A stretch of 64,000 bases of DNA from a virus. The notes beneath the pieces are model-generated. The model did no database searches. It had not been told where the DNA came from and worked only from the letters and a program-made list of their open reading frames with translations. Where the stretch lies: positions 17,692 through 81,691 of IMG/VR virus record IMGVR_UViG_3300046675_000234. One strand, given 5' to 3'. Both the position numbers and the translations under genes were made by a program. Below, piece after piece: positions 29,529-56,111 of the stretch (the first letter of the stretch is position 1; every line of letters starts with the position of its first letter).

Positions 29529-29548
29529 AGATTCTGTGTTTACACACC

Positions 29549-33121: not shown

Positions 33122-33152
33122 GGAATGCGGCGTAAACACCCGGTGTTGACAC
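33122..33152 (+). promoter_or_regulatory. SigR/SigH-type promoter with two operator copies at the strand divergence
   Basis: GGAAT-N18-GTT; GCGTAAACAC and GTGTTGACAC. Confidence 0.75.
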
Positions 33153-33227
33153 CGCTGCGGCACCATCCCTGCCGCGAACGATCCAGTGGTCTACCGGCGA
33201 GAGCAGGTGACCAAGGAAGGGGTAAGC

Positions 33228-33941
33228 ATGCCCCGTAGTAACAGCACCGCCATCCCCGACACCAACGGCAGCCCGCAGGCGGCTGCCGTTGCCCTGGGGG
33301 TCCTCGCCGCATACGCGGACGAGGGCTACCTGAAGGAAGACGGGACCGGCATCGACACCGCCAAGGTCCGGGCCAAGATCCTGGAAGTCGTGCGCGAGCA
33401 CAAGGTCTTGACCTGGAAGGACCGCGCTACCAAGGCGATCCGGCGCGGCGATGTGGTCAGGGCGGTTTTCCCGTCCCTGCCAGCCCCGCCGGACGGCTTC
33501 TCCGAGACCGAGGACCCGCAGCTCGCCAAGGCGGTCTGGGGCAAGGTCTACGGCGATATGTGGCTGCACCTGTCGGTGAGCGCGACCAGCGCTCTCCAGC
33601 AGCTCGTCGGCGCGTCCATGGGTAACGGGTACGTGCTGGTGAGGACCAGCCTGGACTCGCCCCGCCCGGACGCGGTGTACATCACCGACGACCGGACCTG
33701 CATCGACCGCGACCTGCGCAAGCCCGAGAACGACGCGGCCGAGCGCAAGATCAGGTCCGTGCTGGCGACCGTCTCGATGCTGGCCATGCGCCAGCCCGAG
33801 AACGCGAAGCACTATGCCAAGGGCGGCAACGATTTCCTGCGGCACCTCCAGGTGTCCGGCCGGGATCAGATCGCTCTCGCGGTCGCGTCAGCCAGCGGTA
33901 ACGGCGACGAGCCCGGCGACGAGCCCGGCGGCGACGAGTAG
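33228..33941 (+). CDS. hypothetical protein
   Basis: AAGGAAGG RBS. Confidence 0.8.
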   Translation: MPRSNSTAIPDTNGSPQAAAVALGVLAAYADEGYLKEDGTGIDTAKVRAKILEVVREHKVLTWKDRATKAIRRGDVVRAVFPSLPAPPDGFSETEDPQLAKAVWGKVYGDMWLHLSVSATSALQQLVGASMGNGYVLVRTSLDSPRPDAVYITDDRTCIDRDLRKPENDAAERKIRSVLATVSMLAMRQPENAKHYAKGGNDFLRHLQVSGRDQIALAVASASGNGDEPGDEPGGDE

Positions 33942-33997
33942 AACCGGGAGAAGGTGAACGGGGGCGCGGGCAGCGATGACCCGCGCCCCTGGCAGCT

Positions 33998-34990
33998 ATG
34001 GACATATTCTCAGATGACCCGCTGGTCCAGGAAGCGCGCAGGCACTCGGGCCGCATCGTCAACGCGATGGCTGGCCTGGCCGGGCTGATCCAGTATGCCT
34101 GGGACCGGCGCTATGACCGCGTGCTCGGCTACGCGAGCTGGCAGGCGTACTGCGTCGGTGAGTTCGGCAGCGGCGAGGTTGCCATGAAGGCCCGCCAGAT
34201 CGTGGTCTCCCTGCTGTCCGACGCGGGCATGTCCCAGCGCTCGATCGCAGAGCAGACCGGCGCATCCCAGAAGACAGTCAGCCGGGACCTCTCGGCGGGT
34301 GAGTCATCCGTGACTCAGTTGAACGACAATCAGCAACCGGAGGTGACGCAGAGTAACCCGCAGACCGTGCGGGGGAAGGACGGACGAGTGCACCCGAGAG
34401 TGAAGCGGCCGAAGCCGACGCCAGCCGCGATCGGCGCGCTGCGCAAGGAGATCGAGAAGCGGCTGAAGGCCGGTAAGAAGACTGACTTCCGCCAGCTCAT
34501 GACCCAGTTCGAGATGAGCCAGAGCGTCGTGCAGACCCAGATCCAGGTGGTCAGGGCGCTGCTGGAGGACAGGAGCCAGCGCCCGGCAAGCCGGACGCAG
34601 ACCTGGAACGGCAGGTCACGCACGGCACGGCAGAAGGAGATCAAGCTCGCCCGCACGGCATCCGACGCGGCGAACTACCTCAAGATGATGGATCTCCAGG
34701 CGGTGATCTGGAGGCTGTGCGCGGTACTGGAGAACTTCCATATCGAGGACATGCCGCTAGACGAGCACACGCTGCGGACGATCACCGACCTGCTCGATGA
34801 CCTGATCAGCCTCGGTATCTGGCACAACCGGACGCTGACCGCCGTAAAGGGCTGGGTCGGCAGCGCCGACCGGCGGCGCAGGATCGAGCAACTGCGCAAC
34901 GTGGATGGCCGACTGCCCGAGGAAGCCAGGGCATTCCTGGCGATGGCCGACAAGCTGGAGCGCGAGCTGGCCCTGACGCCAGCGGAGTGA
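33998..34990 (+). CDS. HTH DNA-binding protein
   Basis: LGYASWQAYC..GMSQRSIAEQTGASQKTVSRDL..GKDGR. Confidence 0.8.
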   Translation: MDIFSDDPLVQEARRHSGRIVNAMAGLAGLIQYAWDRRYDRVLGYASWQAYCVGEFGSGEVAMKARQIVVSLLSDAGMSQRSIAEQTGASQKTVSRDLSAGESSVTQLNDNQQPEVTQSNPQTVRGKDGRVHPRVKRPKPTPAAIGALRKEIEKRLKAGKKTDFRQLMTQFEMSQSVVQTQIQVVRALLEDRSQRPASRTQTWNGRSRTARQKEIKLARTASDAANYLKMMDLQAVIWRLCAVLENFHIEDMPLDEHTLRTITDLLDDLISLGIWHNRTLTAVKGWVGSADRRRRIEQLRNVDGRLPEEARAFLAMADKLERELALTPAE

Positions 34991-35002
34991 AAGGAGAAGA
35001 TC

Positions 35003-35956
35003 ATGGGTGAACGCCCGAGAGGCCCGATGCCGGGCTGGAGTCCGAAGGGGGACTTCCAGGCCGCGCTGCTGGCCGACATAGTAGACCGGCTGAACCAGCA
35101 CGACCGCGAGGGCACGCTGCCGCGCTCCCCGCGAGGGCTGTTCTACGACCTGCGCCCGAGCGGGTTTGGCCGGGGCATCACGTACACCAAGTACCCGGCC
35201 ATGCGGGTGACCGCATCCGGGCAGAAGCGCAAGGTCAACCCGATGGACGCCAGCGTTGCCAGCGTCCAGGAAGTGCTGGCACTCGCCCGGCGGGCCGGGA
35301 TCATCAGCGAGAACTGGATTGAGGACACCCGCGCGCCCGTCCCGGCAGTGCCGTCCTACGATGACGGCGAGACCGCCGAGAGCCTGGCCGCATCGCTCGC
35401 GGACTGGGTGCGCAACCCGTCCCTGGAATACAGCCCGCAGGAAGGCCAGGAGACACACCTGGAGGTACTGGTGGAGGCCGCTGGCCTGATCAGCCGCCTG
35501 GAGCGGGTGGCCGCGCCCTACGGGGTGCCGGTCTACTCCGGTGGCGGCTACGACGGCATCAAGGGCAAGCGGGCGGCGGGCAACCGCGCCGCGCGCCGCG
35601 ACGTGCCGACCGTGGTGCTGCGGGTCAGCGACTACGACGATCACGGGCTGGCACTGGCACGGGCGTCTTCCGAGGACAGCATCGCCTGGGCCGAGCGGTA
35701 CTACGACGCGGAGCCCGGATGGCTCTCGTTCGAGCGCATCGCGCTGACGCAGGACCAGGCGGCGGACGCCGACCTGCTCGACCAGTTCGGCAAGGCCGAG
35801 GCGGACGGGCTGCCGGTGCAGGTGATGGACCAGATCCTCACCGACGCCATCGAGGGCTACCAGGACCCGGATATCCGCCAGGAGAACATCGAGCGCGCGG
35901 CCGGTGAGCGCGAGCGCGTTCCCGCCCTGGTGCGAGAGCTGCTGAGCCAGTCATGA
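35003..35956 (+). CDS. Topo VI-A/Spo11/JetD-like Toprim nuclease
   Basis: RGLFY; EVLVE..GGGY..SDYDDHG..ERIAL..EADGL. Confidence 0.75.
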   Translation: MGERPRGPMPGWSPKGDFQAALLADIVDRLNQHDREGTLPRSPRGLFYDLRPSGFGRGITYTKYPAMRVTASGQKRKVNPMDASVASVQEVLALARRAGIISENWIEDTRAPVPAVPSYDDGETAESLAASLADWVRNPSLEYSPQEGQETHLEVLVEAAGLISRLERVAAPYGVPVYSGGGYDGIKGKRAAGNRAARRDVPTVVLRVSDYDDHGLALARASSEDSIAWAERYYDAEPGWLSFERIALTQDQAADADLLDQFGKAEADGLPVQVMDQILTDAIEGYQDPDIRQENIERAAGERERVPALVRELLSQS

Positions 35957-36180
35957 GTCGCAGGCACAAGATGCGGGCCAAGTCCGGCAAGCAGCTCGCG
36001 GAGAAGATCCGCGCCGCCTGCCCGGACGCGGTGATCGTCCTGACCGGGAACGGCCACCTGAAGGTGACCGGTCCCGGCGGGACCGCGTTCATCCCGAGCG
36101 CGCCGCCGGACACCCCGAGCGCCCGCTACGAGACGCGCAACAAGCTGCGCTCTCACGCGGGAATCGTCATCGCTACCTGA
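35953..36180 (+). CDS. HicA-like protein
   Basis: TGNGHLKV..IPSAP..RNKLR; 75 aa, basic. Confidence 0.65.
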   Translation: MSRRHKMRAKSGKQLAEKIRAACPDAVIVLTGNGHLKVTGPGGTAFIPSAPPDTPSARYETRNKLRSHAGIVIAT

Positions 36181-36207
36181 GCGCCTGCGCATCCGCCCAG
36201 GCCAGCG

Positions 36208-36238
36208 GGAAGCTACCGGTCAGTTATCCTGTTTACAA
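36208..36238 (+). promoter_or_regulatory. dual SigR-like and sigma-A-like promoter with operator variant
   Basis: GGAAG-N18-GTT; TATCCT-GTTTACAA. Confidence 0.55.
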
Positions 36239-36272
36239 CGAGCATGATGACGATGATGAATAAGGTGCCGAG

Positions 36273-36758
36273 ATGACGCTAGTGGTTGCCGGACGAGAAA
36301 TCGGGGGCGTGCTGGCCTGCCCGCCGATCTCGACAGCACGCAGGCGCGGCCGGTGGTTCGTCCTGGAGCTGTACGCGCTGGATGACGGCGGCTGGCTGGT
36401 GCACCGCACCGGCATGTCCGTGATCTACCACCGGGCGGACACGCTGTGCCAGACCAGGACCGGTGCCCAGAGCGGCGACCCGGCCCGCCTTGATGACCTG
36501 CCCGACGACGCCGACCCCTGCGACGTGTGCGAGCCCGAGTACCCCGAAGACCTGCCGGACGAGCCGGGCATCATCCGGTACGAGTTCCCGAGGCATAGCT
36601 GGGATGAGTGCGAGACGCCAGCCGTGGTGAAGATCCGGCTGACCACCGTCCGCAGCCGCGACGGCTCGGTCAGCGAGTTCACGTCCAAGCCAGTGGACCG
36701 GCTGCTGCGCAGCGCGGCGCTGGCTTACCCCGAGTTCGCGCCGCTGCTCGCAGCATGA
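36273..36758 (+). CDS. hypothetical protein
   Basis: RWFVLELY..S.IYH..PCDVC.P. Confidence 0.75.
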   Translation: MTLVVAGREIGGVLACPPISTARRRGRWFVLELYALDDGGWLVHRTGMSVIYHRADTLCQTRTGAQSGDPARLDDLPDDADPCDVCEPEYPEDLPDEPGIIRYEFPRHSWDECETPAVVKIRLTTVRSRDGSVSEFTSKPVDRLLRSAALAYPEFAPLLAA

Positions 36759-36980
36759 CGTAGGGTGTAAACGCCCCGGCCCGCGCTCACCCCCCAGGCG
36801 CGGCCGGGTGCTCAACGATGAGGAAGCACTGATGAACGAGCCAGCCGAAGACCCGCGAGAGCACTACGCGGTCCTGGTGGTGGACCTGCCGCCGACCGAG
36901 ATCAAGTGCAAGTGCGGGGAGCGGTTCTGGGACGATGACCCGATCGGGCAGATGAAAGCCCACATGGATGAGCTGAACTG

Positions 36981-37430
36981 ATGCCCGGCAAGGGGCCGCT
37001 GAACTGGTCCACGTCGGTCCCGGCGGACAGGACCGCGATGGAGTGCATCGCCATCCTGATCAAGCACGGGGCGAGGAACGTGGGCATGTCACTGGGCGAG
37101 GACCGGGTGCCGGACGGGCTGGATTTCGTGGTCAGCACGCCGTGGGGCCTCCAGCAGTACTCGCTGCCCATCAACATGAGCGGCACCGAGAAGGCGCTGA
37201 AGAAGGCGTGGCGCGAGCACCGGATCGAGCCCCGGTTCGCCACCCCCGAGCACGCCCGCCGGGTTGCCTGGCGGGTGATCAAGGACTGGCTGGAATCCCA
37301 GCTCGCGCTGGTGGAGGCTGGCGTGGCCGACCTGCCGCAGGTGATGCTGTCGTTCATGAAGGTCAGCGTGAACCAGACGATGTACGAGGCCGTGGTCGAG
37401 AACCAGATGCGGGCACTGGAGCAGGGCTGA
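36981..37430 (+). CDS. conserved phage hypothetical protein
   Basis: ARRVAWRVIKDWLESQLA motif. Confidence 0.8.
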   Translation: MPGKGPLNWSTSVPADRTAMECIAILIKHGARNVGMSLGEDRVPDGLDFVVSTPWGLQQYSLPINMSGTEKALKKAWREHRIEPRFATPEHARRVAWRVIKDWLESQLALVEAGVADLPQVMLSFMKVSVNQTMYEAVVENQMRALEQG

Positions 37431-37595
37431 TGTACGAGTGCCCGTCCTGCGGGGCGAAGGGCCTGGTGCTCCGGGCCATGTCCGATCCGGGCAGCCCGTA
37501 CCGCCGCGTGATCTGGCGGCTGTGGTGCGACGGCCCGGAGCCGCACGAGTGGATCGCCATCGCGGGCACCGTGATCACGATCAGCAAGGAGACCG

Positions 37596-39353
37596 GTGTC
37601 CGGCGCTCTGGATGACGTCACGCTGCACCTCGTCAGCAACCTGGACGAGCTGTGGGCCTGCGCCCGGTGGGCGGGCGAGCGCCGCGACGGGCCGCTGTTC
37701 GCGGACACTGAGTCGGCTGGGCTCAACCCTCACCATGACCGGATGCGGATGGTGCAGCTCGGGGACACCCGGCACGGCTGGGCCTTCCCGAAGGGCTGGT
37801 GGGGCGCGGCCATCGAGCTGCTCACCCGGTACGCCGGGGCGATCGGCTTCCACAACAGCCCGTACGACTGGCGGGTGCTGAAGATCCACGAGAACGTCAC
37901 CCCGCTGTGGCACAAGACCGAGGACACGCTGCTGCTCGGGCACATCGCGGACTCACTGCGGCTGGCGGGCCTCAAGCCCAGGGCCACCCAGGAAGTGGAC
38001 CCGCGCGCACTGCGCGGTGAGCAGGTGCTGAGCGAGGGCATGAAGGCCCGGCACTGGACCTTTGATGACGTGCCGGATACCTGGGGGCCGTACTGGATGT
38101 ACGCCGCCCTGGACCCGGTACTGGCCGCGCACCTGTGGGCCGCGCCGAGCTTCACCCGCGCCCGGACCACCTACCGCGAGGCGTACGACCTGGAGCGGGC
38201 CACCGCCCGGATCTGCGCCGGGATGATGCTGACCGGGATGCGGCTGGACCTGCCGTTCATCCATGACCGGATCGCTGAGATCGAAGACTACACCGGGCGG
38301 GCCTCCAACTGGCTGCGGGCCGAGTTCGATATCCGCAACCCCGGCTCGACGCAGCAGGTGGTGGCGTCCATGGAGGCGGCCGGAATCCCGGTGGAGGTGT
38401 TCACCGAGAAGGGCAACCCGTCCCTGAACAAGGAGGCGCTGGGCTATTACGGGCTGGCGTACCCGCAGCACAAGGCGCTATTCGACGCGGTTCGCTGGAC
38501 CCGCAAGGGCAACTCGATGGTGAACAATTACCTGGGCAAGTTCCTGACGCTGGCCAATGATGACATCCTGCATTACAACATCCATTCCTGCCGTGCCCGC
38601 ACCACCCGGATGAGCATCACCGACCCGGCCATGCAGACCTTTGACCGGGACGTTCCCGCGATCCGGGGCAGCTACATACCCCGGCCGGGCCATGCGCTGA
38701 TCACCATTGACGCCGATCAGATCGAGGCACGGCTTACCGCTCATTTCGCCAATGACCCGCGCATGATCGCGGACTTCCGCTACGCCGACGAGAACCACCT
38801 GAAGTTCTTCATCGAGATGGCCAGCCGGATCTACGCCGAGCGGATCACCAAGCGCGACCCCCGGTACACCTGGACCAAGAACGCCACCTACGGCCAGATC
38901 TACGGCGCGGGCCTGGCCAAGGCGGCGGTGACCGCTGGCGTCCCGGTGGAGGTAATGAGGCCCGCCTACGAGGGCCTGTCCCTGATGTACCCGAACGTCG
39001 GCTACTACATGAACCACCTGATCCGCACCGGCAAGGGCCAGCGCCCGAAGGTGCAGACGATCGACGGCCGGTGGCTGTACGTCAACCGGGGGCACGAGTA
39101 CGCCCTGCTCAACACCCAGATCCAGGCCAACGCCGCGATCATCCTCAAACGCGGCATCATCGGCCTGGACGCGGGCGGGCTGGGCGAGTTCCTGCGGCTC
39201 CCGGTGCATGACGAGATCCTGATGGAAGCCCCCGTTGACCTGGCCGCCGAGGTGCTGCGCGAAGCCGAGCGCATCCTGACCGACTACGAGTCATTCAGAG
39301 TTCCCATTACCTGGAGTGGCTCTATCCTCACGGAAAGATGGGTGAAGACCTGA
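37596..39353 (+). CDS. polA: DNA polymerase family A (3'-5' exonuclease + polymerase)
   Basis: DTE, HN..YD, YAALD; DADQIEARL, KNATYGQIYG, VHDEI. Confidence 0.95.
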   Translation: MSGALDDVTLHLVSNLDELWACARWAGERRDGPLFADTESAGLNPHHDRMRMVQLGDTRHGWAFPKGWWGAAIELLTRYAGAIGFHNSPYDWRVLKIHENVTPLWHKTEDTLLLGHIADSLRLAGLKPRATQEVDPRALRGEQVLSEGMKARHWTFDDVPDTWGPYWMYAALDPVLAAHLWAAPSFTRARTTYREAYDLERATARICAGMMLTGMRLDLPFIHDRIAEIEDYTGRASNWLRAEFDIRNPGSTQQVVASMEAAGIPVEVFTEKGNPSLNKEALGYYGLAYPQHKALFDAVRWTRKGNSMVNNYLGKFLTLANDDILHYNIHSCRARTTRMSITDPAMQTFDRDVPAIRGSYIPRPGHALITIDADQIEARLTAHFANDPRMIADFRYADENHLKFFIEMASRIYAERITKRDPRYTWTKNATYGQIYGAGLAKAAVTAGVPVEVMRPAYEGLSLMYPNVGYYMNHLIRTGKGQRPKVQTIDGRWLYVNRGHEYALLNTQIQANAAIILKRGIIGLDAGGLGEFLRLPVHDEILMEAPVDLAAEVLREAERILTDYESFRVPITWSGSILTERWVKT

Positions 39354-39646
39354 TGTACTACACCGACCGGGATGTCAAGGGGTCCGGCACGGGCGGGCAG
39401 TTCAACCCGCAGTCGCCTAAAGCCCGCGAGGTTCTCGACTGGATCTACACACAGAAGCCAGGCAAGAGAATCCTGCGAGATGATGCGCCAGCCTGCCACC
39501 AGATATCCGATGGGGAGATCAAGGAGGCGATAAAGATGAACCTGATTGACGATCAGGGCGTCCGCACGGAAATAGGCCACCACCCCAGTCTCATCCGCAG
39601 TCAGCCAATTGACTGGCAGGCACTGTGGGAGATGGCGGATAAATGA
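39353..39646 (+). CDS. hypothetical protein
   Basis: TGATG coupling to polA. Confidence 0.6.
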   Translation: MYYTDRDVKGSGTGGQFNPQSPKAREVLDWIYTQKPGKRILRDDAPACHQISDGEIKEAIKMNLIDDQGVRTEIGHHPSLIRSQPIDWQALWEMADK

Positions 39647-39951
39647 TCGGTTACCTGCACATCGGTGAGACCCGCGCCGAGATCGACACCATCGAGTTCG
39701 GCAATGACTGCATGGTGATCAGGGCCACCCTCGGGGGAAACGTCGCGGCCACGCTGCGCGGGCACGTCAAGATCACCGGGTCAGACGGCACGGTCTGCTG
39801 GCGCGGCACTAAGTGGCACGACTACGGTGTCAAGACCGTGGGCGGTCCCCTCGGGCCGAGCACCTGGTTCATCACGCTGAACGCCGACCTGTTCGACCGG
39901 ACCAACGTCGAGATCACGGCCAGGTATGACCCGCCCGTGGACCCGCCATGA
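39643..39951 (+). CDS. hypothetical protein
   Basis: ATGA coupling. Confidence 0.65.
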   Translation: MIGYLHIGETRAEIDTIEFGNDCMVIRATLGGNVAATLRGHVKITGSDGTVCWRGTKWHDYGVKTVGGPLGPSTWFITLNADLFDRTNVEITARYDPPVDPP

Positions 39952-39953
39952 TG

Positions 39954-40385
39954 CTAGGCGGGCGGCGCGTTCGGGTCTACCGGCACGTTCGGATCGACCG
40001 GGGCGTTCGGGTCTACCGGTGCGGCGGGCTGCACCAGGGCACTGACGCTGCCAGCCGCCGAGTCGAGCGCGGCCTGGACCTGGCTGGCCCGCTGCGCGAG
40101 CGCGTCGAGCTGGGTGGTGTCCACCGGGGTGCCAGCCGCAGCCTGCGCGGCGATGGACTGGGCGGCGGCGGTGAGGTCGGCTGCCTTGGCCGATACGTCA
40201 TCCATCATCGTGCTGATGGCGGCGACGTCGGCGGCGATCTGCTGCTCTGTCATGAGGATCTGGTTTACCTTCCCGTGCATACGGTCAACGGAAGACTGGA
40301 GATTGGACAGCGCCGTGGTCACCTGCACGTACCAGGAGTTCGACGGCGCGCGGGGGGACCACACGGCTCTGAACCAGCCGGTCAC
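39954..40385 (-). CDS. coiled-coil protein with PVDPN repeats
   Basis: Ala-rich heptads; PVDPNA/V x3. Confidence 0.6.
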   Translation of the reverse strand: MTGWFRAVWSPRAPSNSWYVQVTTALSNLQSSVDRMHGKVNQILMTEQQIAADVAAISTMMDDVSAKAADLTAAAQSIAAQAAAGTPVDTTQLDALAQRASQVQAALDSAAGSVSALVQPAAPVDPNAPVDPNVPVDPNAPPA

Positions 40386-40582
40386 CCGGCGTCAGGCGGC
40401 GGCGGCTGTACGGGACTGGCCTCGGCAGCCTGGGGCTCTGGCACCTCGGCGGCGGCAGCGGCTTCCTCATCGAGCTTGCGCTGCTCGGCTACCTCGGCAG
40501 CGACGGCCTCGCGGTCCTGTGGCATGGTCATGATGGCCTCCCTTCGCACTGAGCCTCGCACTTACCCGCCAAGGAGGCAACT

Positions 40583-41032: not shown

Positions 41033-41056
41033 CCTGTTTACACCATCAAGGCAACG

Positions 41057-41497: not shown

Positions 41498-41504
41498 GCC
41501 GCTC

Positions 41505-44729: not shown

Positions 44730-44777
44730 TGTCAGACCCCTGTGCTCTGATAGGGTGAGGACACCGGAAAGGTAACG

Positions 44778-45587: not shown

Positions 45588-45593
45588 AGAACG

Positions 45594-46820: not shown

Positions 46821-46861
46821 GACCAACTGACAGCCATCCCAACACAACAGAAGGAAGAACG

Positions 46862-47653: not shown

Positions 47654-47657
47654 AGAC

Positions 47658-47947
47658 GTGACCGGCTGTAGCGAGGCTGGCTGAGAATATACCGCTGATG
47701 TGCACCGAGCGCTTGCACCACGGGAGCGCACACGAACACGAGTAGCGGGTGTCACCCGGTCGCCAGCCGGTCACTTAGCTGCCCCGCAGGCTCTCTGAAT
47801 GCGCGCGGGATACCGGCCCCGATGTAATCAGGGGGGTGCTGGTCCCCGACTAGGCACAACCTGCGGGGGCGTCAGCCGGGAACGGAAGACCACGGCTGGC
47901 GCTGCCCGGCCCCTGCGAGATTCACGGGATCAATCGGGGGCCGGGCA
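47658..47947 (+). ncRNA. candidate structured ncRNA, four consecutive stems
   Basis: perfect 9-11 bp closing stems filling a 290-nt intergenic region; strand assumed. Confidence 0.5.
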
Positions 47948-47958
47948 CCGGCATGTCT

Positions 47959-47989
47959 GGAATAGATCCATGGCCTGGGGTGTTTACAC
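47959..47989 (+). promoter_or_regulatory. SigR/SigH-type promoter + operator
   Basis: GGAAT-N18-GTT, GTGTTTACAC. Confidence 0.8.
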
Positions 47990-48051
47990 CATCGTAGGGC
48001 CGCAACAGCAGCCCGGATCAAAATGTCAGACCCGACAGAGACGATGAGGAA

Positions 48052-49074
48052 ATGTCACAGGAAACCAGCGAGTGGCTGAACAGGTACACCCTGATCGGCT
48101 TCACCGACAAGCGCGACAAGGCATGGCACTACCGCGAGAGCGCGCAGGGCGCAGAGCCCAACCACTATCCCGGCGAGATCCCGGTGGCCGACATCAACCG
48201 CCGCCTGTTCGACTGGGAGCCCGCGATCGGCACGTCCGAGTCCACCTGGGCCGACGCCGATGGCAAGACCCGGAAGACCACCTGGCAGGACCGGATCACC
48301 CTGATCCACCCGCACACCGGCTTCCGCCTCGGTGAGTTCACCGATGGCTTCACCCCGCACAGCTACCGCGAGTGGCTGGTCAAGCTCAGCCAGGACGTCA
48401 TGGACTCCGACGTCGGCGCAAGCTCGGCAGGACTGCTGAAGGGCGGCAAGCTCGCCTGGGTGCAGTTCGAGCTGCCCGAGACGCTGGACACGCCGCAGGG
48501 CGTCAAGTACCGGCCGTTCTTCCTGGCCGCCGACTCGCTCGACGGGTCGCTGAGCACCACGCACCAGCGCGGTATCCAGCTCGTTGTCTGTGACAACACC
48601 CTGGCTGCGGGCCTGGCCGAGGGCAACGCCCTGAAGGTCAAGACCCGGCACAGCAAGTACTCCAACGCCAACATCGGTGACGTCCGCGCCAAGCTGGACA
48701 TCATCTACCAGGCGGGCGACGACTTCGCCGCCGAGGTGGACAAGCTCACCTCGACCGCCGTCAGCGACACCCAGTGGGACGAGTTCCTGAAGGCCCACCT
48801 GGGCGAGCGCCCGGAGGACAAGGGCCGTGGGCAGACCAACTACGACAACCGGCGCGATGAGCTGACCAACCTGTGGGACAACGACATGCGGGTAGCCCCG
48901 TGGGCCAACACCGCGTTCGGAGTACTCCAGGCAGTCAACACCCACGCGCACCACATCCAGACCGTGAAGGGCGCAGGCCGCGCCGAGCGGAACATGACCA
49001 AGATGGTGACCGGCGAGTTCGAGAAGCTGGACGCTGCCACCCTCGACCAGCTCAACCTGGTGCTCGCAGCCTGA
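48052..49074 (+). CDS. DUF932-family protein
   Basis: AWH..SAGLLKGG..DSLDG..VVCDNT..RHS..TAFGVLQAV. Confidence 0.85.
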   Translation: MSQETSEWLNRYTLIGFTDKRDKAWHYRESAQGAEPNHYPGEIPVADINRRLFDWEPAIGTSESTWADADGKTRKTTWQDRITLIHPHTGFRLGEFTDGFTPHSYREWLVKLSQDVMDSDVGASSAGLLKGGKLAWVQFELPETLDTPQGVKYRPFFLAADSLDGSLSTTHQRGIQLVVCDNTLAAGLAEGNALKVKTRHSKYSNANIGDVRAKLDIIYQAGDDFAAEVDKLTSTAVSDTQWDEFLKAHLGERPEDKGRGQTNYDNRRDELTNLWDNDMRVAPWANTAFGVLQAVNTHAHHIQTVKGAGRAERNMTKMVTGEFEKLDAATLDQLNLVLAA

Positions 49075-49095
49075 TCTAGTAGGCTGATTACACCA

Positions 49096-49123
49096 GGGGG
49101 CCAGGCGGTACGCCGCCTGGCCC
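49096..49123. terminator. hairpin after DUF932 gene
   Basis: GGGCCAGGCGG-tacg-CCGCCTGGCCC. Confidence 0.65.
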
Positions 49124-49144
49124 TCGGGCCGTTAGGAGGCGGTT

Positions 49145-49450
49145 ATGCAAGAGGCCGGGGTCAAGCCCGAAGCGGCGTGGCGCTCGGCTGTCTCGTTTAC
49201 CAAGCTGGCTGAGCTGCTCAGCGCGCATTACGGGGAGACGATCACCCGCCAGCGGGTGTATGAGTGGTGGAAACGGGAGACGAAGAACGCGGCCGGGCAG
49301 GTGTTCCCGCGCGAGGTGCGCGGGGTACCTGACGCGCCGCTCAACCGGCCGAGCCGCCACTTTGACTACAGCCAGGTGCTGACCTGGACCACGCACGGGG
49401 TGCCAGCCCGCTACGGTAACGGCTGGCGACAGCTAGGTAGCCGGGAATAG
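49145..49450 (+). CDS. HTH/excisionase-like protein
   Basis: FTKLAELL..ITRQRVYEW..FP..FDYSQVLTW. Confidence 0.65.
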   Translation: MQEAGVKPEAAWRSAVSFTKLAELLSAHYGETITRQRVYEWWKRETKNAAGQVFPREVRGVPDAPLNRPSRHFDYSQVLTWTTHGVPARYGNGWRQLGSRE

Positions 49451-49474
49451 ACCCCGGACCTGGAGTGTTTACAC
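49444..49474 (+). promoter_or_regulatory. SigR/SigH-type promoter + operator
   Basis: GGAAT-N18-GTT, GTGTTTACAC. Confidence 0.8.
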
Positions 49475-49738
49475 CAACGTAGGGCCTCGCAAGGAGGCCC
49501 CGAACGGCAGGACAACGATACAGATGACGATAACCGAAGCCAGGGCGCAGTATGACGCCGTGGAAGATCACGCCGCGAGCTGCGAGCGCACGGTGGCCGC
49601 TGGCCGGTGCACCGGGTGCGGGGAAGAGGCAGGGGAGCTGATCCCCTGGACGCCGCGCGAGCGCCTGTGCTGGCGCTGCACCGATCTCCAGCTCGACCTG
49701 CTCGCCCTGGCCATGGGCCAGGCATGGACGGTGACGGC

Positions 49739-50176
49739 ATGAACGTCACCGAGGCAGTGCGGTTCGTTGAGGGCCTGGCCTTCAAGCCGGGCTGGCAGCC
49801 CACCGCCGAGGTCTACACCGCCAGCGGGCTGGTGGAGCTGAGCTTCATCATCCGCACGGTGGACACCAGCTACCCGGACCCTGATGGGGTCTGCCGCAGG
49901 CAGATCACCATCTACGGTCAGCAGCGGCTGGTCAACGTCCGCGACATGGACGAGACGGACCTGCTGGCCGAGGTGCTGAAGTGCGCGGCCGACAACGACA
50001 TGCACGAGAACCGCGAGTTCCTGAAGGTCCGCCAGCCGGACGGGTCCTGGCACGCACCGCTGCACCCCCACACCAACGCGGGCAACCGCGCGTGGGACCA
50101 GCGGAAGGAGCCAGCCCGGAAGCCAGCGGCTACCAGCGCTGCTGGCCTGATGCAGCTCCTGGGCCTGGAGGACTAG
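49739..50176 (+). CDS. hypothetical protein
   Basis: FKPGW..HENREF..PLHPH. Confidence 0.75.
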   Translation: MNVTEAVRFVEGLAFKPGWQPTAEVYTASGLVELSFIIRTVDTSYPDPDGVCRRQITIYGQQRLVNVRDMDETDLLAEVLKCAADNDMHENREFLKVRQPDGSWHAPLHPHTNAGNRAWDQRKEPARKPAATSAAGLMQLLGLED

Positions 50177-50616
50177 ATGAGCCAGCCCGTCCTGTACGGG
50201 CCGGGCAGCGTGGAGGTGCAGGCCATCGGATACGCCGATGGCCAGCCCTCCGCGTACCGGGTCCGCCGCCATGGCTTCCAGGTGCTGTACACCCCGCCTC
50301 ACTACCAAGGACCAGGCGGGCGCAACCCCCGCACCATAGCCGAGCTGTCCGCCCTGGTGGATCTCGGCACCCTGAAGGAGACACCCTATGCTGAGCCCGA
50401 CCAAGCGCCGTGAGCTGAACCGCACGGTCATCAGGGCGATGCGGATGCACGCGGTCTGGAGCGGCAACGAGCTGCGTGACCGCCCCGACGCCCTGCGCGA
50501 GCGCAACGAGGCGCTGCTGACCGCTAAGCGCGCCCTGGTCGAGCTGATGGCCGACCACAACGATGAGGTGCGGGTCGTGCTGAACCTCAAGCCGCCGCCG
50601 CTGAAGGCGGTGGACA

Positions 50617-51051
50617 GTGCCTAAGCTCAAGCCGCGCAAGAGCCCCTGCGCGTCCTGCCCGTACCGGCTCGACGTGCCGTCCGGCGTGTGGGCCGAGTCG
50701 GAGTACGACAAGCTGCCCGCCTACGACGGCGATACGGGCGAGCAGGCGATGGCCGGGGCGCTCGGCGCGTTCCTGTGCCACAACGACCCGGACAAGTCCA
50801 TCTGCGCGGGCTGGGCGGCGCTCAGCAACTACGACACGCTGGCGCTGCGGATGGCTTCACGGCTGGACCCCGACGTTGACGTGCAGGCGTGCGTGGACTA
50901 CACCACCGACGTGCCGCTGTTCGCCAGCGGGGCCGAGGCCGCCGAGCACGGCAAGCGCGAAATCGAGGCTCCTTCGGACAAGGCGGTCTCCACGATCGGC
51001 AAAGTGGTCAAGGTGAGGGCTCGCACGAGCAAGCCAGTTGTCACGGAATAA
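50617..51051 (+). CDS. DUF6283-like Cys-rich protein
   Basis: PCASCPYRLDVPSGVWAESEYDKL..FLCH..CAGW. Confidence 0.75.
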   Translation: MPKLKPRKSPCASCPYRLDVPSGVWAESEYDKLPAYDGDTGEQAMAGALGAFLCHNDPDKSICAGWAALSNYDTLALRMASRLDPDVDVQACVDYTTDVPLFASGAEAAEHGKREIEAPSDKAVSTIGKVVKVRARTSKPVVTE

Positions 51052-51075
51052 CCACCTGATCTGGAGTGTTTACAC
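51045..51075 (+). promoter_or_regulatory. SigR/SigH-type promoter + operator, probably driving leaderless ORF 51080-51250
   Basis: GGAAT-N18-GTT, GTGTTTACAC; ATG 9 nt after GTT. Confidence 0.8.
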
Positions 51076-51252
51076 CAGTATGAACGACACGAAGAAGCCC
51101 AACTCCGCTGAGATCGCCGCTGCGATGGCCAACTGGACGCCGCCGCGCACAATCGACGCCGAAGACCTGACCGAGGCCCTGATCAAGCTGGACCTCTACA
51201 TCCCCGGCCTCTCCTACCAGGAGACCGCCGAGAAGATCATGGAGTCTTGACG

Positions 51253-51810
51253 ATGAACAGCACGCAAACCTTCACCTGGAAGCGCCAGCCCGATGGCCAC
51301 TACGTGGCCCGGCACGGCTTCTGGGTCTACGACGTATGGCGCAACGACCGCGCCGCCAAGGGCCGCCAGTGGAACCTGACCGCGTACCCCGAGGCCAACG
51401 CCGAGGCTGCCCAGGAGCGCAGCGGCTTCGCTAATCTCAAGACGGCCAGGCTCGCGGCCGAGCGCACCCACTGCTTCATCTGCGGGCGGCACTTCCCGTT
51501 CGGCACGCTGAAGCGCCAGCCCGGCCGCAGCCAGCTCAGCTACCCGACCTGGGTGTGCCGCGACGAGAAGCCGTGCCGCGCCGAGCGCGACCGGCTGACC
51601 GGCGAGCGCGAGCGGGCAGACGCTCCCCGCGACTACGCCGACACGCTCGCTGAGATCGTGAAGGCCAAGGCCCGCGTGCGCCAGCTAGAGTCTGACGCGC
51701 TGAAGCTGCACGACAAGGCCCGCGAGCTGGGCACGCCCGAGCACGAGCTGCGCGCCATCGAGCAGCAGCACGGCTTCGGCCTTCCCGCCATCCCGTACAC
51801 CGGGGAATAA
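51253..51810 (+). CDS. hypothetical protein
   Basis: GGAG RBS, codon bias. Confidence 0.7.
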   Translation: MNSTQTFTWKRQPDGHYVARHGFWVYDVWRNDRAAKGRQWNLTAYPEANAEAAQERSGFANLKTARLAAERTHCFICGRHFPFGTLKRQPGRSQLSYPTWVCRDEKPCRAERDRLTGERERADAPRDYADTLAEIVKAKARVRQLESDALKLHDKARELGTPEHELRAIEQQHGFGLPAIPYTGE

Positions 51811-51834
51811 CACCCCGGCCTGCGGTGTTTACAC
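51804..51834 (+). promoter_or_regulatory. SigR/SigH-type promoter + operator
   Basis: GGAAT-N18-GTT, GTGTTTACAC. Confidence 0.8.
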
Positions 51835-51905
51835 CATTGAAAGGGATGCTTGAGTCAAGGGGGCCGGAAGGCCCGGCCCCTCTTCAAGCTCCTGGAGAGA
51901 CAACG

Positions 51906-52310
51906 ATGCAGATCACGATACTGAAGGAAGACCTGATCCATGTCCGCGATGAGGGCACGATCATCGTCTTCACCGGCACCGCCGAGAACGGCGACCGGGT
52001 GAGCTTCGGCGCTGACCACCGTCCCGCCTGGGCGCTGTACGAGGGCGTGCTGGAAGAGGGCGAAGCGCAGGCCGAGGTCGAGAGCTACCAGGTGCTCAGC
52101 ACCGTCCCGCTCCGCAAGGGCCGGATCGCGCGGGGCTCCAGCTCCGTCGAGAGCGTTGCCCGCTACCTGCCCGCCAACTACAAGGTGACGGACTCCGACA
52201 CGGATTACGTCTACTTCGCAGGCCACGACAACGCTGGATGGACGATGGAGGACTACGTGCTCCCGCGCCTGGCCAGCGGCCTGATCTTCGCAGAGGAAGT
52301 GAAGTCATGA
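51906..52310 (+). CDS. hypothetical protein
   Basis: GHDNAGWTMEDYVLPRLASG motif. Confidence 0.75.
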   Translation: MQITILKEDLIHVRDEGTIIVFTGTAENGDRVSFGADHRPAWALYEGVLEEGEAQAEVESYQVLSTVPLRKGRIARGSSSVESVARYLPANYKVTDSDTDYVYFAGHDNAGWTMEDYVLPRLASGLIFAEEVKS

Positions 52311-52549
52311 CCACCGCCGAGCCCCGCCCGCTGCACAAGATCGCGGACGAGATCACCAGGGTATGGCGCAAGCCGTACTTCGGCGCGGTGCCCTACATCG
52401 ACGCGATGCGGCACCTGGCTACCGTCGAGGACAAGTTCTACAACGAGCCCGGCGACGACATCGTGATGTACTTCCTGTCCAACGCCAGGTACTGGCGCGG
52501 GCCGGACGCCACGCGGATCAAGGCCGAGCTGAAGGCGATGCTCCCATGA
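52307..52549 (+). CDS. conserved phage hypothetical protein
   Basis: YFLSNARYWRG..IKAELK. Confidence 0.75.
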   Translation: MTTAEPRPLHKIADEITRVWRKPYFGAVPYIDAMRHLATVEDKFYNEPGDDIVMYFLSNARYWRGPDATRIKAELKAMLP

Positions 52550-52971
52550 GCACCCAGGGCCACCCGCGCCACCAGATCCGCGAGTTCACCGTCAGCTACA
52601 AGCGCAGCACCAACGGGCACACCAGCTCGTGCAAGGTGATGGCGCAGACCGAGGATGACGCGATACTCCGCGCCGGGATGCTCCTGGCCGCCCGCTACCG
52701 CCCCGTCAAGGACGCCGCCGGGTGGGCCTCCCAGTTCATCGTGACCGGCGTGGAAGACCCCGCCCCGCTGACCTGGCAGCCGCCCGGATCAGCAAGCGGC
52801 AAGTCCTACTGCACCAACCCGGAGCACGGCCACGGCGAGCACGATGCGTCGTGTTGCCCGCCAGCCGACCCGTCCGACCCGGAGCTGCGGCTGCTGCGCG
52901 CGATCTTCGGCCTGTGCGGGCTGTGCGACGTCGAGGACGCGCACAGCCACGTCCCGGAGGACCGGCCATGA
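52546..52971 (+). CDS. hypothetical protein
   Basis: ATGA coupling. Confidence 0.65.
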   Translation: MSTQGHPRHQIREFTVSYKRSTNGHTSSCKVMAQTEDDAILRAGMLLAARYRPVKDAAGWASQFIVTGVEDPAPLTWQPPGSASGKSYCTNPEHGHGEHDASCCPPADPSDPELRLLRAIFGLCGLCDVEDAHSHVPEDRP

Positions 52972-53487
52972 GCGCCACTTACCGCTGGTACAGCGTCGGT
53001 ATCCGGCCGGTGACCGGCGACAGCAAGACCGTCGAGATCCTGGGCTGGTCCAGGAGCCAGCCCAACGCCCTGGCGGTGAAGGGCACGATCGCTGTCTACT
53101 TCGCCTCCAGCCGCCGGATGGCCGCCCGCATGGCCAGGGATGATCGCGGGTTCGAGATCGAGTGGAGGAAGTACTGATGGGCAGCCCGATCGACCGCAGC
53201 CTGGCGTTCACCGCGCTACTCGACCAGGGCCAGTTCGCTGGCGTGGAGAGCAAGCGCGGTGAGCAGATGGTGACCGTCTTCCTGCACGACTACTACCGCT
53301 CGGTGGACCGCTACAAGGCCGCTGAGCAGCAGTTCCCCACCATGTACGAGTTCGCCCGGACCTGGGAGATGCACGATGTGCCCTGAGTCCGAGGACGTCC
53401 TGACCGACTGGGACCGGCTGGCAGACGCCGAGCTGACCCACGACAAGCCGCTGGCCGACACCGAGCTGGCGCACATAGGAGCACACG

Positions 53488-53808
53488 ATGCCGGTAACAC
53501 CTGAGTGGACCGAGGACCAGCTACGGGCCTACGTCGATGACAAGTACGACGAGGACCAGGCCCAGCACGATGAGGCATGGGCGCTGATCCAGCGCTGGCT
53601 GGCCCGTGGCGACGGAGCCGCCGTCTACGAGAATCACGACCTGGGCCACCCGCAGCTCGGAGAGCCCCGGATCGTCTCGTGGGGCTCGCCCCAGGCCGTG
53701 TTCGAGAACGTGACCGAGCCAGGCCAGCTCCCCGACCGGCTGCCCGACTGGCCCGGCCAGATCAACTGGCGGTACACCCTGATCGCCACCTGCCGTAGGC
53801 CGTCATGA
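53488..53808 (+). CDS. hypothetical protein
   Basis: AGGAG RBS; AVYENHDLGHP. Confidence 0.7.
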   Translation: MPVTPEWTEDQLRAYVDDKYDEDQAQHDEAWALIQRWLARGDGAAVYENHDLGHPQLGEPRIVSWGSPQAVFENVTEPGQLPDRLPDWPGQINWRYTLIATCRRPS

Positions 53809-53989
53809 CCACCGCCGTGGGCTGGGCGACGTCCGTCGCCCTCACCGCCCTCTACATCGGGATCAACGTCCTGGTCCACCTGGACCAGCCGCGCGAGATC
53901 CTCCAGTTCGTCGGCGGCTACCTGGTGGTCTACGGCAGCGTCGGCCTGGCCATCCTCGCCTGGTACTACCTCTGGAAAGTGCCCCGGCT

Positions 53990-55009
53990 ATGAGCAGCCA
54001 GCACTATGAGCCGGTCACGCGGGCAGACATCGACGCACGGGGCTTCGGCCAGGTCTGCCCGCGTACGCTGAGCGCCACCGACGTGCTGGACATGCACGCC
54101 GACCTCCAGCGGTCCCTGGCCCACCCGGACCCGTGGTTCCGCGAGGGCCTGAAGGACTACGCGGTACGGGACGTGGGCGACACGCCGCAGTGGGCTGCCA
54201 GCCACCTGCACCCGTCCACCTCCATGAAAGACCTGGACCCCTGGCTGGCATCGCTCGGCAGTGACCTGTTCGGCGCGACCACCTACCAGGTGACCGCCGA
54301 GATGGTGGACCTGGCCGAGGCGCTGGCTGCGGCCAACCCGACCATCGGCGCGATCCAGCGCGAAGACCTGCCAGCCCGCTACGGGTTCATGTGGCTGGAC
54401 AAGCCGATCCCGCGCCCGTCGATCGAGGACACCGAGGACATGGAGCCGCTGCTGATGCACGCGGTGAGCTGGGCTCTGGTCCCGGAGATGACCGTACGGA
54501 TCGGCTGGAATCCCGAGTCCAGCTTCGTCGGCTCCATGCCAGCCATCCGGCTGCGCGAGTGGGGCTACAACAACGACCCCGACGTCCGGCCGCGCCCGCT
54601 GCACCTGATGGGCCAGGCCACCATCCCGATCACCGGCCAGGTGTACACCAGCCTGAAGGAGCACTGGCACGTCCACATGCTGTGGATACTCATGGGGATG
54701 GCGATCACCGCCAGCCGCACCGAGCTGCCCGGACGGCAGGGAGCCAAGCGCGCCGCGAACCTGAAGCACAAGCTGGTCCGGGTGATCACGCTGCGCCGCC
54801 CGGAGCGGAGCGCGGCCGACAAGCCCAGCGCCACGCCCCGGCACATCGACTGGACCTGCTCCTGGCTGGTGCGCGGCCACTACCGCAAGGCCCCGCACGA
54901 CGGCACGTTCAGCGACGGCAGGACCGAGACCTGGGTCCGCCCTTACATCAAGGGGCCGGACGGCCTGCCGCTGCGCTCGGCGGACATCCTGTACAAGCTG
55001 GCGCGATGA
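53990..55009 (+). CDS. conserved phage hypothetical protein
   Basis: WLVRGHYR..WVRPYIKGP C-terminal motif. Confidence 0.8.
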   Translation: MSSQHYEPVTRADIDARGFGQVCPRTLSATDVLDMHADLQRSLAHPDPWFREGLKDYAVRDVGDTPQWAASHLHPSTSMKDLDPWLASLGSDLFGATTYQVTAEMVDLAEALAAANPTIGAIQREDLPARYGFMWLDKPIPRPSIEDTEDMEPLLMHAVSWALVPEMTVRIGWNPESSFVGSMPAIRLREWGYNNDPDVRPRPLHLMGQATIPITGQVYTSLKEHWHVHMLWILMGMAITASRTELPGRQGAKRAANLKHKLVRVITLRRPERSAADKPSATPRHIDWTCSWLVRGHYRKAPHDGTFSDGRTETWVRPYIKGPDGLPLRSADILYKLAR

Positions 55010-55134
55010 AGCGCACACGGTACCGGTTCACCGGGCAGCACGCGGGCCGGTACTACTGGCAGAGCGTGCTGCCGGTGTCGCCAGGTGACTCGCGGTACGA
55101 GCAGATCAGTTGCCCGGTGAGCTGGTTCTGGGGC

Positions 55135-55165
55135 GGAATAAAAGCCTGAGCTGGAGTGTTTACAC
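55135..55165 (+). promoter_or_regulatory. SigR/SigH-type promoter + operator
   Basis: GGAAT-N18-GTT, GTGTTTACAC. Confidence 0.8.
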
Positions 55166-55263
55166 CAGTGTAAGACAAAAGCGCGGGACCGGGGTCACGA
55201 CCCCAGCACGGACCTGGGCGCAACGACAGATGCCGGTCCCGCGCCCCAGACGATGAGGAAGCA

Positions 55264-55545
55264 ATGCCACAGATTTCAGATTTCGAGTACGGCTGGGCCA
55301 CCGACCCGGACAGCGGGCGGTACGCCTACAGCTACCACCGGGACCGGGACGTCGCCGCCGTCTATCACGGCGGGCAGTACGTCGAGGTCAGCGTCTCGGG
55401 CACCTGGCATCCCGGCCAGCCGCTTCACGAGATGATCGCCTACGAGGCGCTCAACACCTACAGCGGCGACACCGGGGAGCGCATGCTCCAGCTCGACCCG
55501 GAAGCGCTCACCAGGTACTTCATTGCGTCGGGACAGGCGGGCTGA
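55264..55545 (+). CDS. hypothetical protein
   Basis: GACGATGAGG leader. Confidence 0.7.
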   Translation: MPQISDFEYGWATDPDSGRYAYSYHRDRDVAAVYHGGQYVEVSVSGTWHPGQPLHEMIAYEALNTYSGDTGERMLQLDPEALTRYFIASGQAG

Positions 55546-55859
55546 TGAACAAGATCATCACCTACGGCATAGAGGCCGAGACCGGCACCGTGATCAGCAA
55601 GGTAGGCGGCGAAGTCGCCTACCCGGTGCTGGACTTCGCGGCAATCGGCCAAGGCGGCGACGGCTACGCGCCCGGCGACTTCAACGGGCCGACCCGCTAC
55701 GACCTGGAGAAGATGTCCGTCTACGACATCGACTACCGGACCATCCGGTGGACGAAGGGACGCGGCACCACGCGCGGACTCCCGGCCATCCCGGTCGAGC
55801 TGAAGAACAGGCACCGCGTGTTCTGGGGCTTCAAGCCCCTACCGGAGGCGCAGTCATGA
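55545..55859 (+). CDS. hypothetical protein
   Basis: TGATG coupling. Confidence 0.7.
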   Translation: MNKIITYGIEAETGTVISKVGGEVAYPVLDFAAIGQGGDGYAPGDFNGPTRYDLEKMSVYDIDYRTIRWTKGRGTTRGLPAIPVELKNRHRVFWGFKPLPEAQS

Positions 55860-56080
55860 GATACGAGAACCGCAGGCTGGCCCACGGGCTGGCCTGGTTC
55901 ACCCTGGTCCTGCCGCTGCTGGTCCTGTTCTGGATTCCGGTCCAGGCGGTGCTGCTGATCAGCTCCGTGCTGATCGCCGCCGTCACGCTGTGGGTGACCA
56001 GCTCGACCATGCGGGACGTCCGCGTGATCCGCTACGGGTACTTCTGGTACTTCCACGCGGACCTGCACTAAGACCTGGCG

Positions 56081-56111
56081 GGAATAGGCCCGCCACGAGC
56101 GGTGTTTACAC
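56081..56111 (+). promoter_or_regulatory. SigR/SigH-type promoter + operator
   Basis: GGAAT-N18-GTT, GTGTTTACAC. Confidence 0.8.

Follow-up and report, generated by a model that had tools for sequence, protein, structure and literature searches.

A stretch of viral DNA 64,000 nucleotides long (hereafter the window; bases 17692-81691 of the 81,691-bp IMG/VR virus record IMGVR_UViG_3300046675_000234, which has a 127-bp terminal repeat) carries nine promoter-like sites built on the two-box motif GGAAT-N18-GTT, whose geometry points to the SigH/SigR class of actinobacterial extracytoplasmic function (ECF) sigma factors. The reading that we favor, at about even odds (a probability near 0.5), is that each site is a composite element in which a SigH/SigR-class promoter, read by host RNA polymerase, is overlaid by the site of a phage-specific regulator. 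The motif has eight exact matches in the window, compared with a mean of 0.28 and a maximum of 2 in 100 dinucleotide-preserving shuffles; seven of these are on the plus strand, co-oriented with the block of plus-strand genes, and the eighth is on the minus strand. The variant GGAAG-N18-GTT was found twice against 0.52 expected, which is not significant alone, and one plus-strand copy of it completes the set of nine, all of which are co-oriented with the gene downstream.

A first-pass annotation of this DNA had listed eight such sites (starting at 33122, 47959, 49444, 51045, 51804, 55135, 56081 and, with GGAAG, 36208) and had placed them on the coding strand upstream of gene blocks. All eight are present at these starts, and every plus-strand site lies 10 to 104 nt before a plus-strand start codon. 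The annotation missed the ninth site, a co-oriented minus-strand copy (26893..26868), as well as a 33-nt pattern, GGAATA-N15-GTGTTTACACCA, that the six best sites (47959-56081) have in common and that is present in weaker form at 33122, 36208 and 26893(-). The remaining 17.7 kb of the genome, beyond the window, contains no further copy of GGAAT-N18-GTT. At 49444, 51045 and 51804, the end of one gene and the next promoter are fused, the upstream stop codon being the TAG or TAA inside GGAATAG or GGAATAA. The annotation had also proposed that early genes are wired to these sites, and of this only a part stands. The sites do precede genes, but the six strongest (47.9-56.1 kb) lie in the distal right arm and not before the first genes, so that an early program is not established; these six precede small genes of no known function, and for the replication genes there are only two weaker variants (33122 and 36208) and one isolated copy of the core described below. 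A scan for sigma-70-type promoters between 45 and 58 kb returned no matches, and without the two-box sites this 13-kb right end would be left with no promoter-like signal.

The nine sites fit what has been described for this sigma class closely. For SigH of Mycobacterium tuberculosis, Sharp et al. reported the optimum GGAAYR-(N17-18)-GTT, with 17 nt between the boxes in 19 of 25 mapped promoters and a purine favored at position 6 of the hexamer (PMC4803200). The sigmaH consensus of Corynebacterium glutamicum is gGGAAta at -35 and t/cGTTgaa at -10; in that organism, the mshC and trxB1 promoters have GGAATA-N17-GTT and the rshA promoter has GGAAGA-N17-GTT, and a T at -31 marks promoters used by sigmaH only, sigmaE requiring a C (PMC10012870). 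In the phage, the hexamer is GGAATA at six sites, GGAATG at 33122 and 26893(-), and GGAAGC at 36208, where the G at the fifth position is one that C. glutamicum sigmaH tolerates, as in the rshA promoter. The spacer between hexamer and GTT is 17 nt in all nine sites and in their orthologues from two related genomes (G005 and G003, described below), and the -10 element reads TGTT throughout (9/9), i.e., with a pyrimidine before GTT. Position -31 is T at eight of the nine sites and G at the other; a C was seen only at one site of G003. The first-pass assignment to the SigH/SigR consensus is borne out as a precise fit to the ECF12 type, while the SigE that it had named alongside is disfavored by the T at -31. 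We infer that all nine function as genuine promoters and belong to the actinobacterial SigH/SigR (ECF12) class.

What lies downstream of the boxes is equally regular. When 21 sites from the present genome (G000), G005 and G003 were pooled, information content was highest at GGAAT(a) and gGTGTTTACACCA and near zero in the spacer. With the numbering used for C. glutamicum sigmaH (GGAAT at -35 to -31, GTT at -12 to -10; PMC10012870), the 10th base after GTT, which is G or A in 18 of the 21 sites, would be +1. At 51045 this base is the A of the start codon at 51080, and transcription from it would give a leaderless mRNA. At most of the sites, a stem-loop begins at about +5; its sequence varies among sites and orthologues, with the pairing kept through compensatory changes (examples of stems are GGGCCTC/GAGGCCC, GGGCTCG/CGAGCCC and GCGGGTG/CACCCGC). 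The stem-loop at 49482..49500, for instance, has orthologues in G005 and G003 that pair with different sequences. A ACGATGAGGAA-like ribosome-binding region follows the stem-loop. This order (-35, -10, +1 purine, 5' hairpin, ribosome-binding region, start codon) looks like that of a promoter module.

A second layer of sequence lies over the -10 box. A near-palindromic core, GTGTTTACAC(C), covers positions -14 to -5 in every two-box site. The window contains 10 copies of GTGTTKACAC, where 0.05 would be expected, and a search that tolerated one mismatch brought the core to about 16 copies, all of them intergenic or at gene boundaries. Its arms, GTGT and ACAC, stand around an asymmetric TT and extend to GGTGT/ACACC in about half of the sites, which suggests a dimeric DNA-binding protein. 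Seven copies of the core lack a properly spaced GGAAT (13882, 18443, 24382(-), 29536, 33139(-), 36774(-) and 41034); those at 13882, 18443, 29536 and 41034 are kept at orthologous places in G005, and the last of them is kept in G003 as well. A perfect GTGTTTACACC is found in G005 (59709, minus strand) in the same region as the copy at 36764..36774, although the two were matched by region and not by alignment. An ECF sigma factor does not need TACACC, so something else must constrain the core, and the fact that the core also occurs alone points to a second, phage-specific reader. Probably, this is a phage regulator. The copy at 18443 would sit in an operator-like position with respect to the TATCGT-N6-ATG/GTG downstream of it, which has leaderless SigA-type geometry.

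Relatives of the phage were found by a pattern scan of viral contigs, and three of them are true relatives: G001, a near-identical fragment; G005, an 80.6-kb genome with 79% identity over 62 kb; and G003, an 83.8-kb genome with 73% identity over 34 kb. G005 has nine sites, counting one GAAAT variant, and these include positional homologues of the weak sites at 33122 and 36208; G003 has at least four, with unrelated spacers. Between these two genomes and ours, the two boxes and their fixed spacing alone are conserved. At 47959, for example, both orthologues keep both boxes and have diverged in the spacer, and in the alignment of the divergent region from G000 and G005 the only survivors are GGGAATGC and GGTGTTGACACC, at fixed spacing (the 33122 site). 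A reversed control pattern had no matches in the relatives, nor was any ECF sigma found in them. A fourth contig, G002 (51% GC), was rejected as a relative, its single match being due to chance. More distant phages that have gp1, the product of the first rightward gene, at 39-46% identity (L047-L049) carry SigA-type promoters before the gp1 gene, with the motif absent there, and the module therefore appears to be specific to the present lineage.

The same geometry is found in an unrelated phage. Bxz1, a cultured Mycobacterium phage of cluster C (NC_004687), has 18 forward and 2 reverse GGAAT-N18-GTT sites in its whole genome, the two reverse ones resembling tRNA T-arms. Its first 50 kb contain 13 GGAAY-N18-GTT sites against 1.17 expected, all on the coding strand and all 13 with a purine at GTT+10; at one (7535), the ATG at 7570 is at GTT+10, i.e., the site is leaderless. 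As in the present phage, short gaps ahead of small genes hold many co-oriented copies, with the same boxes, the same spacing and a purine at the predicted +1. However, the flanks are different (GGAATGA...CCCATACC...CGTT-ATACTGAGT(-G) in many Bxz1 sites, as opposed to GGAATA...CTGGnGTGTT-TACACCA here), and Bxz1 has no GTGTTTACAC core. We found no ECF sigma in Bxz1 and no published description of its array. Since two unrelated phages are alike in boxes, spacing and predicted +1 only, a common reader is the simplest explanation, and this suggests that a shared host reader stands behind both. SigH/SigR orthologues are widely conserved in Actinobacteria, which makes a host sigma factor the obvious candidate. 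Rhodococcus phage Trogglehumper, picked for its similar size and DUF932 similarity, was tried as a further case and rejected: the motif is not enriched in the 29.5 kb examined, where five scattered GGAAY-N17-19-GTT matches have mixed spacing, lie mostly on the noncoding strand and are absent before the DUF932 gene.

The first-pass annotation saw no sigma gene in the window. This holds at the level of profile hidden Markov models, and with the search extended to six frames of the whole 81,691-bp genome, no recognizable ECF sigma gene was found in the rest of the record either. Sigma region 2 (PF04542, Sigma70_r2) and Sigma70_ECF (PF07638) gave nothing at E<=10, and the sole match to PF08281 (Sigma70_r4_2), PF04545 (Sigma70_r4) or TIGR02937 was the helix-turn-helix (HTH) of gp2, which fell below the cut-off. 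NCBIfam searches with 10 further ORFan candidates were without a match, as was a search of the phage for a T7-like RNA polymerase (PF00940), for which the control genomes were likewise silent. Homologues of D29 gp53, gp52 and gp53.1 were sought in the phage, with only noise returned, and its proteins contain no ZAS (HxxxCxxC) or WhiB-like cysteine motifs. A canonical sigma factor is, on these profiles, absent from the phage, and in a phage with no recognizable sigma the host SigH/SigR holoenzyme would be the most likely reader.

It is also conceivable, although we regard it as unlikely, that a cryptic phage sigma or a sigma-like partner of RNA polymerase reads the whole 33-nt unit (GGAATA plus GTGTTTACACCA), and the core-only sites as promoters that lack a -35 box, the likeness to SigH/SigR promoters then reflecting descent from, or convergence with, an ECF sigma. 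Such a reader would explain why conservation reaches -3, well past what an ECF sigma needs, and it has a precedent in D29 gp53, a mimic with sigma2/sigma3-like domains that was recognized through interaction proteomics and structural modelling (bioRxiv 10.64898/2026.10.05.756390). Two of the core-only copies (24372- and 41034) do stand at a promoter-like distance before genes; in the 18443 gap, read on the minus strand, a hairpin and CAACGATGAGGAAG come after the core in the manner of the two-box modules; and the right-arm proteins are mostly ORFans. Yet no sigma region 2 was found, the only region-4-like match is an ordinary HTH near the N terminus of a 330-aa protein, the confident fold of gp1 is not sigma-like, and there is no homologue of gp53 or gp52. 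Moreover, Bxz1 has the same boxes, spacing and predicted +1 with different flanks and no ECF sigma, for which a shared host reader is the simpler explanation.

Two proteins encoded at the start of the rightward block are candidates for the regulator. The gp1 model is confident (pLDDT, the predicted local distance difference test score, of 90.4) and comprises a winged-helix-like region (approximately residues 33-157) and a long helical hairpin (residues 163-231), with no clear PDB match. Its best resemblances, at Z of about 6 to 7 and below the level that we would trust, are to winged-helix domains (ScpB, PurR and OmpR-type) and coiled-coil hairpins; the predicted fold looks novel, and the confident model has no sigma-like match. 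gp2, the HTH of which (residues 62-100) is the one place in the genome with a weak sigma region-4-like signal, scores better in Pfam as an ArsR/HTH_24-type protein, and its model is poor (pLDDT 58). While the gp1 family is the broader one, with 34 metagenome homologues (all unnamed), that of gp2 (seven homologues) is confined to the present phage lineage, as is the core, and for this reason gp2 may be a better candidate than gp1 for the protein that reads the core.

In the arrangement that we propose, GGAAT(A/G) would occupy -35 to -30 and tGTT would end at -10, with the transcription start at the conserved purine that follows GTT by 10 nt. A protective 5' stem-loop, and after it the ACGATGAGGAA-type ribosome-binding region, would open most transcripts, the one from 51045 being leaderless. 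The reader would be host RNA polymerase carrying the SigH/SigR orthologue of the host. A phage DNA-binding protein, either gp2 (HTH) or gp1 (winged-helix-like with a coiled coil), would bind the core GTGTTTACAC(C), as a repressor or an activator, and would gate in time the two-box promoters and a few promoters of the SigA type.

Several points weigh against this arrangement. All 10 exact copies of the core are on the plus strand, the leftward arm included, which is odd for a symmetric operator. TACACCA is conserved after GTT (-9 to -3), and an ECF sigma alone leaves this unexplained. The core-only sites imply recognition of the core without GGAAT, and whatever recognizes them could be the true reader of the promoters. 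Because an anti-sigma factor normally keeps SigH/SigR bound, a phage that relies on it would also need a step that releases it, which the proposal leaves unexplained. Most of the early proteins have no detectable family, and mycobacteriophage sigma mimics are known that only interaction and structural work revealed. Both regulator candidates are weak (a fold match at Z of about 6 for gp1, and a gp2 that was not modelled well), and both the phage and its host are uncultured.

The core also holds TTTACA or TTGACA, which resembles a SigA -35 element, and it is found with and without GGAAT. One could imagine that a phage protein bound to the core (and perhaps to GGAATA too) recruits the host SigA holoenzyme, much as T4 MotA/AsiA do at middle promoters, and that the ECF likeness is coincidental; gp1 and gp2 would be the candidate DNA binders, coming as they do from the first operon. 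We think this improbable. When the sites were read manually with TTTACA/TTGACA as a SigA -35, no TANNNT was found 16 to 19 nt downstream in any core two-box site, and TACACC or TAGGGC as the SigA -10 was rejected for lack of a T at -7 and for wrong spacing. The exact N18 spacing and the purine at GTT+10 are, instead, what ECF geometry predicts, and Bxz1 has the same geometry without the core. That the sites are not promoters at all, but operator or architectural sites, or sites for a replication or packaging protein, that chance to lie between genes is very improbable indeed: the core is near-palindromic, one copy adjoins an iteron-like repeat array (29470-29545) and three copies (13882, 29536 and 36774-) are not co-oriented with the neighboring genes, but the two-box sites are all co-oriented, stand close before start codons and have a 5' hairpin and a ribosome-binding region after them, the GGAAT box is asymmetric, keeps a fixed spacing and belongs to no palindrome, and without these sites the right end would be bare of promoter-like signal.

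Returning to a SigH/SigR-class promoter with a phage regulator laid over it, the nearest known class is that of the SigH (Mycobacterium, Corynebacterium) and SigR (Streptomyces) regulon promoters, which are read by ECF12-type sigma factors held by the ZAS anti-sigma factors RshA/RsrA. The likeness takes in GGAAT(A/G), the 17 nt to GTT, the pyrimidine before GTT, the T at -31, a purine at GTT+10 as the predicted +1 and the occurrence of both leadered and apparently leaderless forms (PMC4803200, PMC10012870). Unlike those regulons, the phage sites are a phage-borne array of near-identical copies with no thiol- or heat-stress genes downstream, and they have an extra invariant TACACCA (-9 to -3), which together with the -10 box makes up a near-palindrome. 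Multicopy phage operators that overlap promoters are known from the stoperators of cluster A mycobacteriophages and from the conserved inverted repeats of phiC31. As in such systems, the core is a short conserved site at many intergenic places, overlaps promoter elements and is lineage specific; it differs in being only 10-12 bp long, in coinciding with the -10 box of an ECF-type promoter and in having candidate repressors only. The regulons of phage sigma factors (phiEco32 gp36, SPO1 gp28/gp34 and T4 gp55) and the D29 gp53 sigma mimic are alike in their rigid, phage-wide, nonhousekeeping consensus, but no sigma-like gene is detectable in the present phage. We found no description of SigH/SigR-type promoter arrays in actinophages; promoters of this class are well known from host stress regulons, and the literature that we found has no account of their use as an array across a phage genome together with an overlaid phage-specific palindrome.

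Transcription in actinobacterial phages is thought to rest on the housekeeping sigma factor and phage regulators. A gene block wired to a host stress sigma would tie infection to the redox and heat-stress state of the host and would bear on mycobacterial phage therapy, on induction and its timing, and on the subversion of anti-sigma factors. One may go further and suppose that the phage takes a developmental cue from the thiol/heat-stress sigma of the host: SigH/SigR would be released from its anti-sigma factor by infection or by a phage protein, the array of optimal promoters would fire, and the phage regulator on GTGTTTACAC would set the timing. The same geometry in the unrelated Bxz1 is what leads us to consider this as a general, undescribed strategy by which actinobacteriophages link their expression to host redox state, a possibility that we put forward tentatively and hold to be somewhat doubtful. 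The narrower first-pass proposal, in which the host redox sigma is needed for, or sensed by, the early program of the phage, is a plausible but unproven one. The idea is directly testable in cultured Bxz1. The unit is also compact and portable, combining a promoter of 33 nt with a 5' stem-loop and a ribosome-binding region, and, if SigH dependent, would be a strong stress-inducible part for actinobacterial genetics.

Table 1. Two-box sites, isolated copies of the core, and other features of the window (positions are those of the window)
Feature	Position	Strand	Context
Weaker two-box site, GGAATG-N17-GTT, core GGTGTTGACACC	33122..33154	+	Divergent intergenic region before rightward operon (gp1, gp2, DNA polymerase A and following genes)
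Two-box variant, GGAAGC-N17-GTT(TACAAC)	36208..36240	+	40 nt before ATG 36273; orthologous copy in G005
Core two-box site, GGAATA-N15-GTGTTTACACCA	47959..47991	+	Before DUF932 gene, ATG 48052
Core two-box site	49444..49476	+	Before 72-aa open reading frame (ORF), ATG 49524; upstream TAG (49448-49450) inside GGAATAG
Core two-box site	51045..51077	+	ATG 51080 is 10th nt after GTT, leaderless geometry; upstream TAA (51049-51051) inside GGAATAA
Core two-box site	51804..51836	+	Before 134-aa ORF, ATG 51906; upstream TAA (51808-51810) inside GGAATAA
Core two-box site	55135..55167	+	Before 93-aa ORF, ATG 55264
Core two-box site	56081..56113	+	Before 240-aa ORF, ATG 56165, last rightward gene; 5' hairpin 56116-56137
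Two-box site, GGAATG-N17-GTT, core CTGTTTACGCCA	26861..26893	-	Inside 3' end of leftward gene, 56 nt before next leftward ATG 26812; orthologue in G005; hairpin at 26860-26832
Core-only copy GTGTTGACAC	13882..13891	+	Intergenic gap, left arm; adjoins GC hairpin and ACGATCACGAA repeats; block conserved in G005
Core-only copy	18443..18452	+	Center of 57-nt divergent gap, upstream of conserved TATCGT-N6-ATG/GTG for plus-strand gene 18474-18746
Core-only copy CTGTTTACACA	24372..24382	-	21 nt before leftward ATG
Core-only copy	29536..29545	+	Preceded by ACACCCGCA direct-repeat array (29470-29535)
Core-like copy GTGTTTACGCC	33129..33139	-	Leftward-facing, back to back with 33122 site; partly kept in G005
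Core-like copy GCGTTTACACC	36764..36774	-	Between two plus-strand genes, not co-oriented
Core-only copy CTGTTTACACC	41034..41044	+	Between two plus-strand genes, about 30 nt before ATG; TGTTTACAC is a conserved island in three-genome alignment
Stem-loop GGGCCTC-gcaag-GAGGCCC	49482..49500	+	Free energy -17.7, z -2.9; fixed offset after two-box site
gp1, 237 aa	33228..33941	+	First rightward gene; candidate DNA-binding regulator
gp2, 330-aa HTH protein	33998..34990	+	Weak sigma region-4-like signal
Family A DNA polymerase	37596-39353	+	Rightward block
Prim-Pol	31640-32593	-	First gene of leftward arm
GH25 lysin	19981-21009	-	Leftward arm, then head genes
CGATGAGGA copies	48042, 55251, 56140 (+); 12995, 18418, 24370, 26828, 40472 (-); 36816		One further copy outside window

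Genes were called by third-position GC. The G+C content of the phage is 68.5%, and no tRNA genes were found in it. A single rightward block of genes occupies window positions 33186-56887, and all else is leftward, the two arms diverging at 33069-33185. Besides the polymerase, the rightward block encodes an Lsr2-like protein, an SNF2 helicase, a PD-(D/E)XK exonuclease, a Sak4-like protein, a DUF932 protein, DUF6283 and many ORFans. At the right end of the window the leftward arm finishes in tail genes, and the large unannotated proteins encoded there are of tail type. No integrase was noticed among the annotated genes, in a search that was not exhaustive, and the phage may therefore be lytic. 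Two rightward genes (window 18474-18746 and 19081-19683), for which no family match was found, lie within the leftward arm beside the lysis genes.

A megablast search against cultured phages had no match. At the protein level, the polymerase is closest to those of Micrococcus and Arthrobacter phages (best identity 38%), the lysin to those of Mycobacterium, Rhodococcus and Gordonia phages (33%) and the DUF932 protein to those of Rhodococcus phages (47%). No prophage relatives pointing to a host were found among genome contigs. The host is certainly actinobacterial, and it is likely to be of the Mycobacteriales type; since the protein similarities point to such a host, SigH would be a better name for the sigma factor than Streptomyces SigR.

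Some minor features of the intergenic regions deserve mention. The block at 13882-13950 contains, on the plus strand, a CCCCCC-A-GGGGG hairpin and ACGATCACGAA in tandem, both neighboring genes being leftward, and may mark an antisense or noncoding transcript. In a 328-nt gap between leftward genes, four to five copies of the direct repeat ACACCCGC(A), conserved in G005, lie at 29470-29545 and could serve as an iteron array, as an origin of replication or as a regulator array. Upstream of the 47959 promoter stands a long gap (47654-47958), rich in GC and dense in hairpins; no Rfam family matched anywhere in the window, this gap included. Finally, CGATGAGGA is found in 10 copies in the genome, nine of them in the window and usually directly before start codons, and related ACGATnACGAT doublets stand before other starts. 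CGATGAGGA is a conserved extended ribosome-binding motif, and it is reminiscent of the start-associated sequences of cluster K mycobacteriophages.

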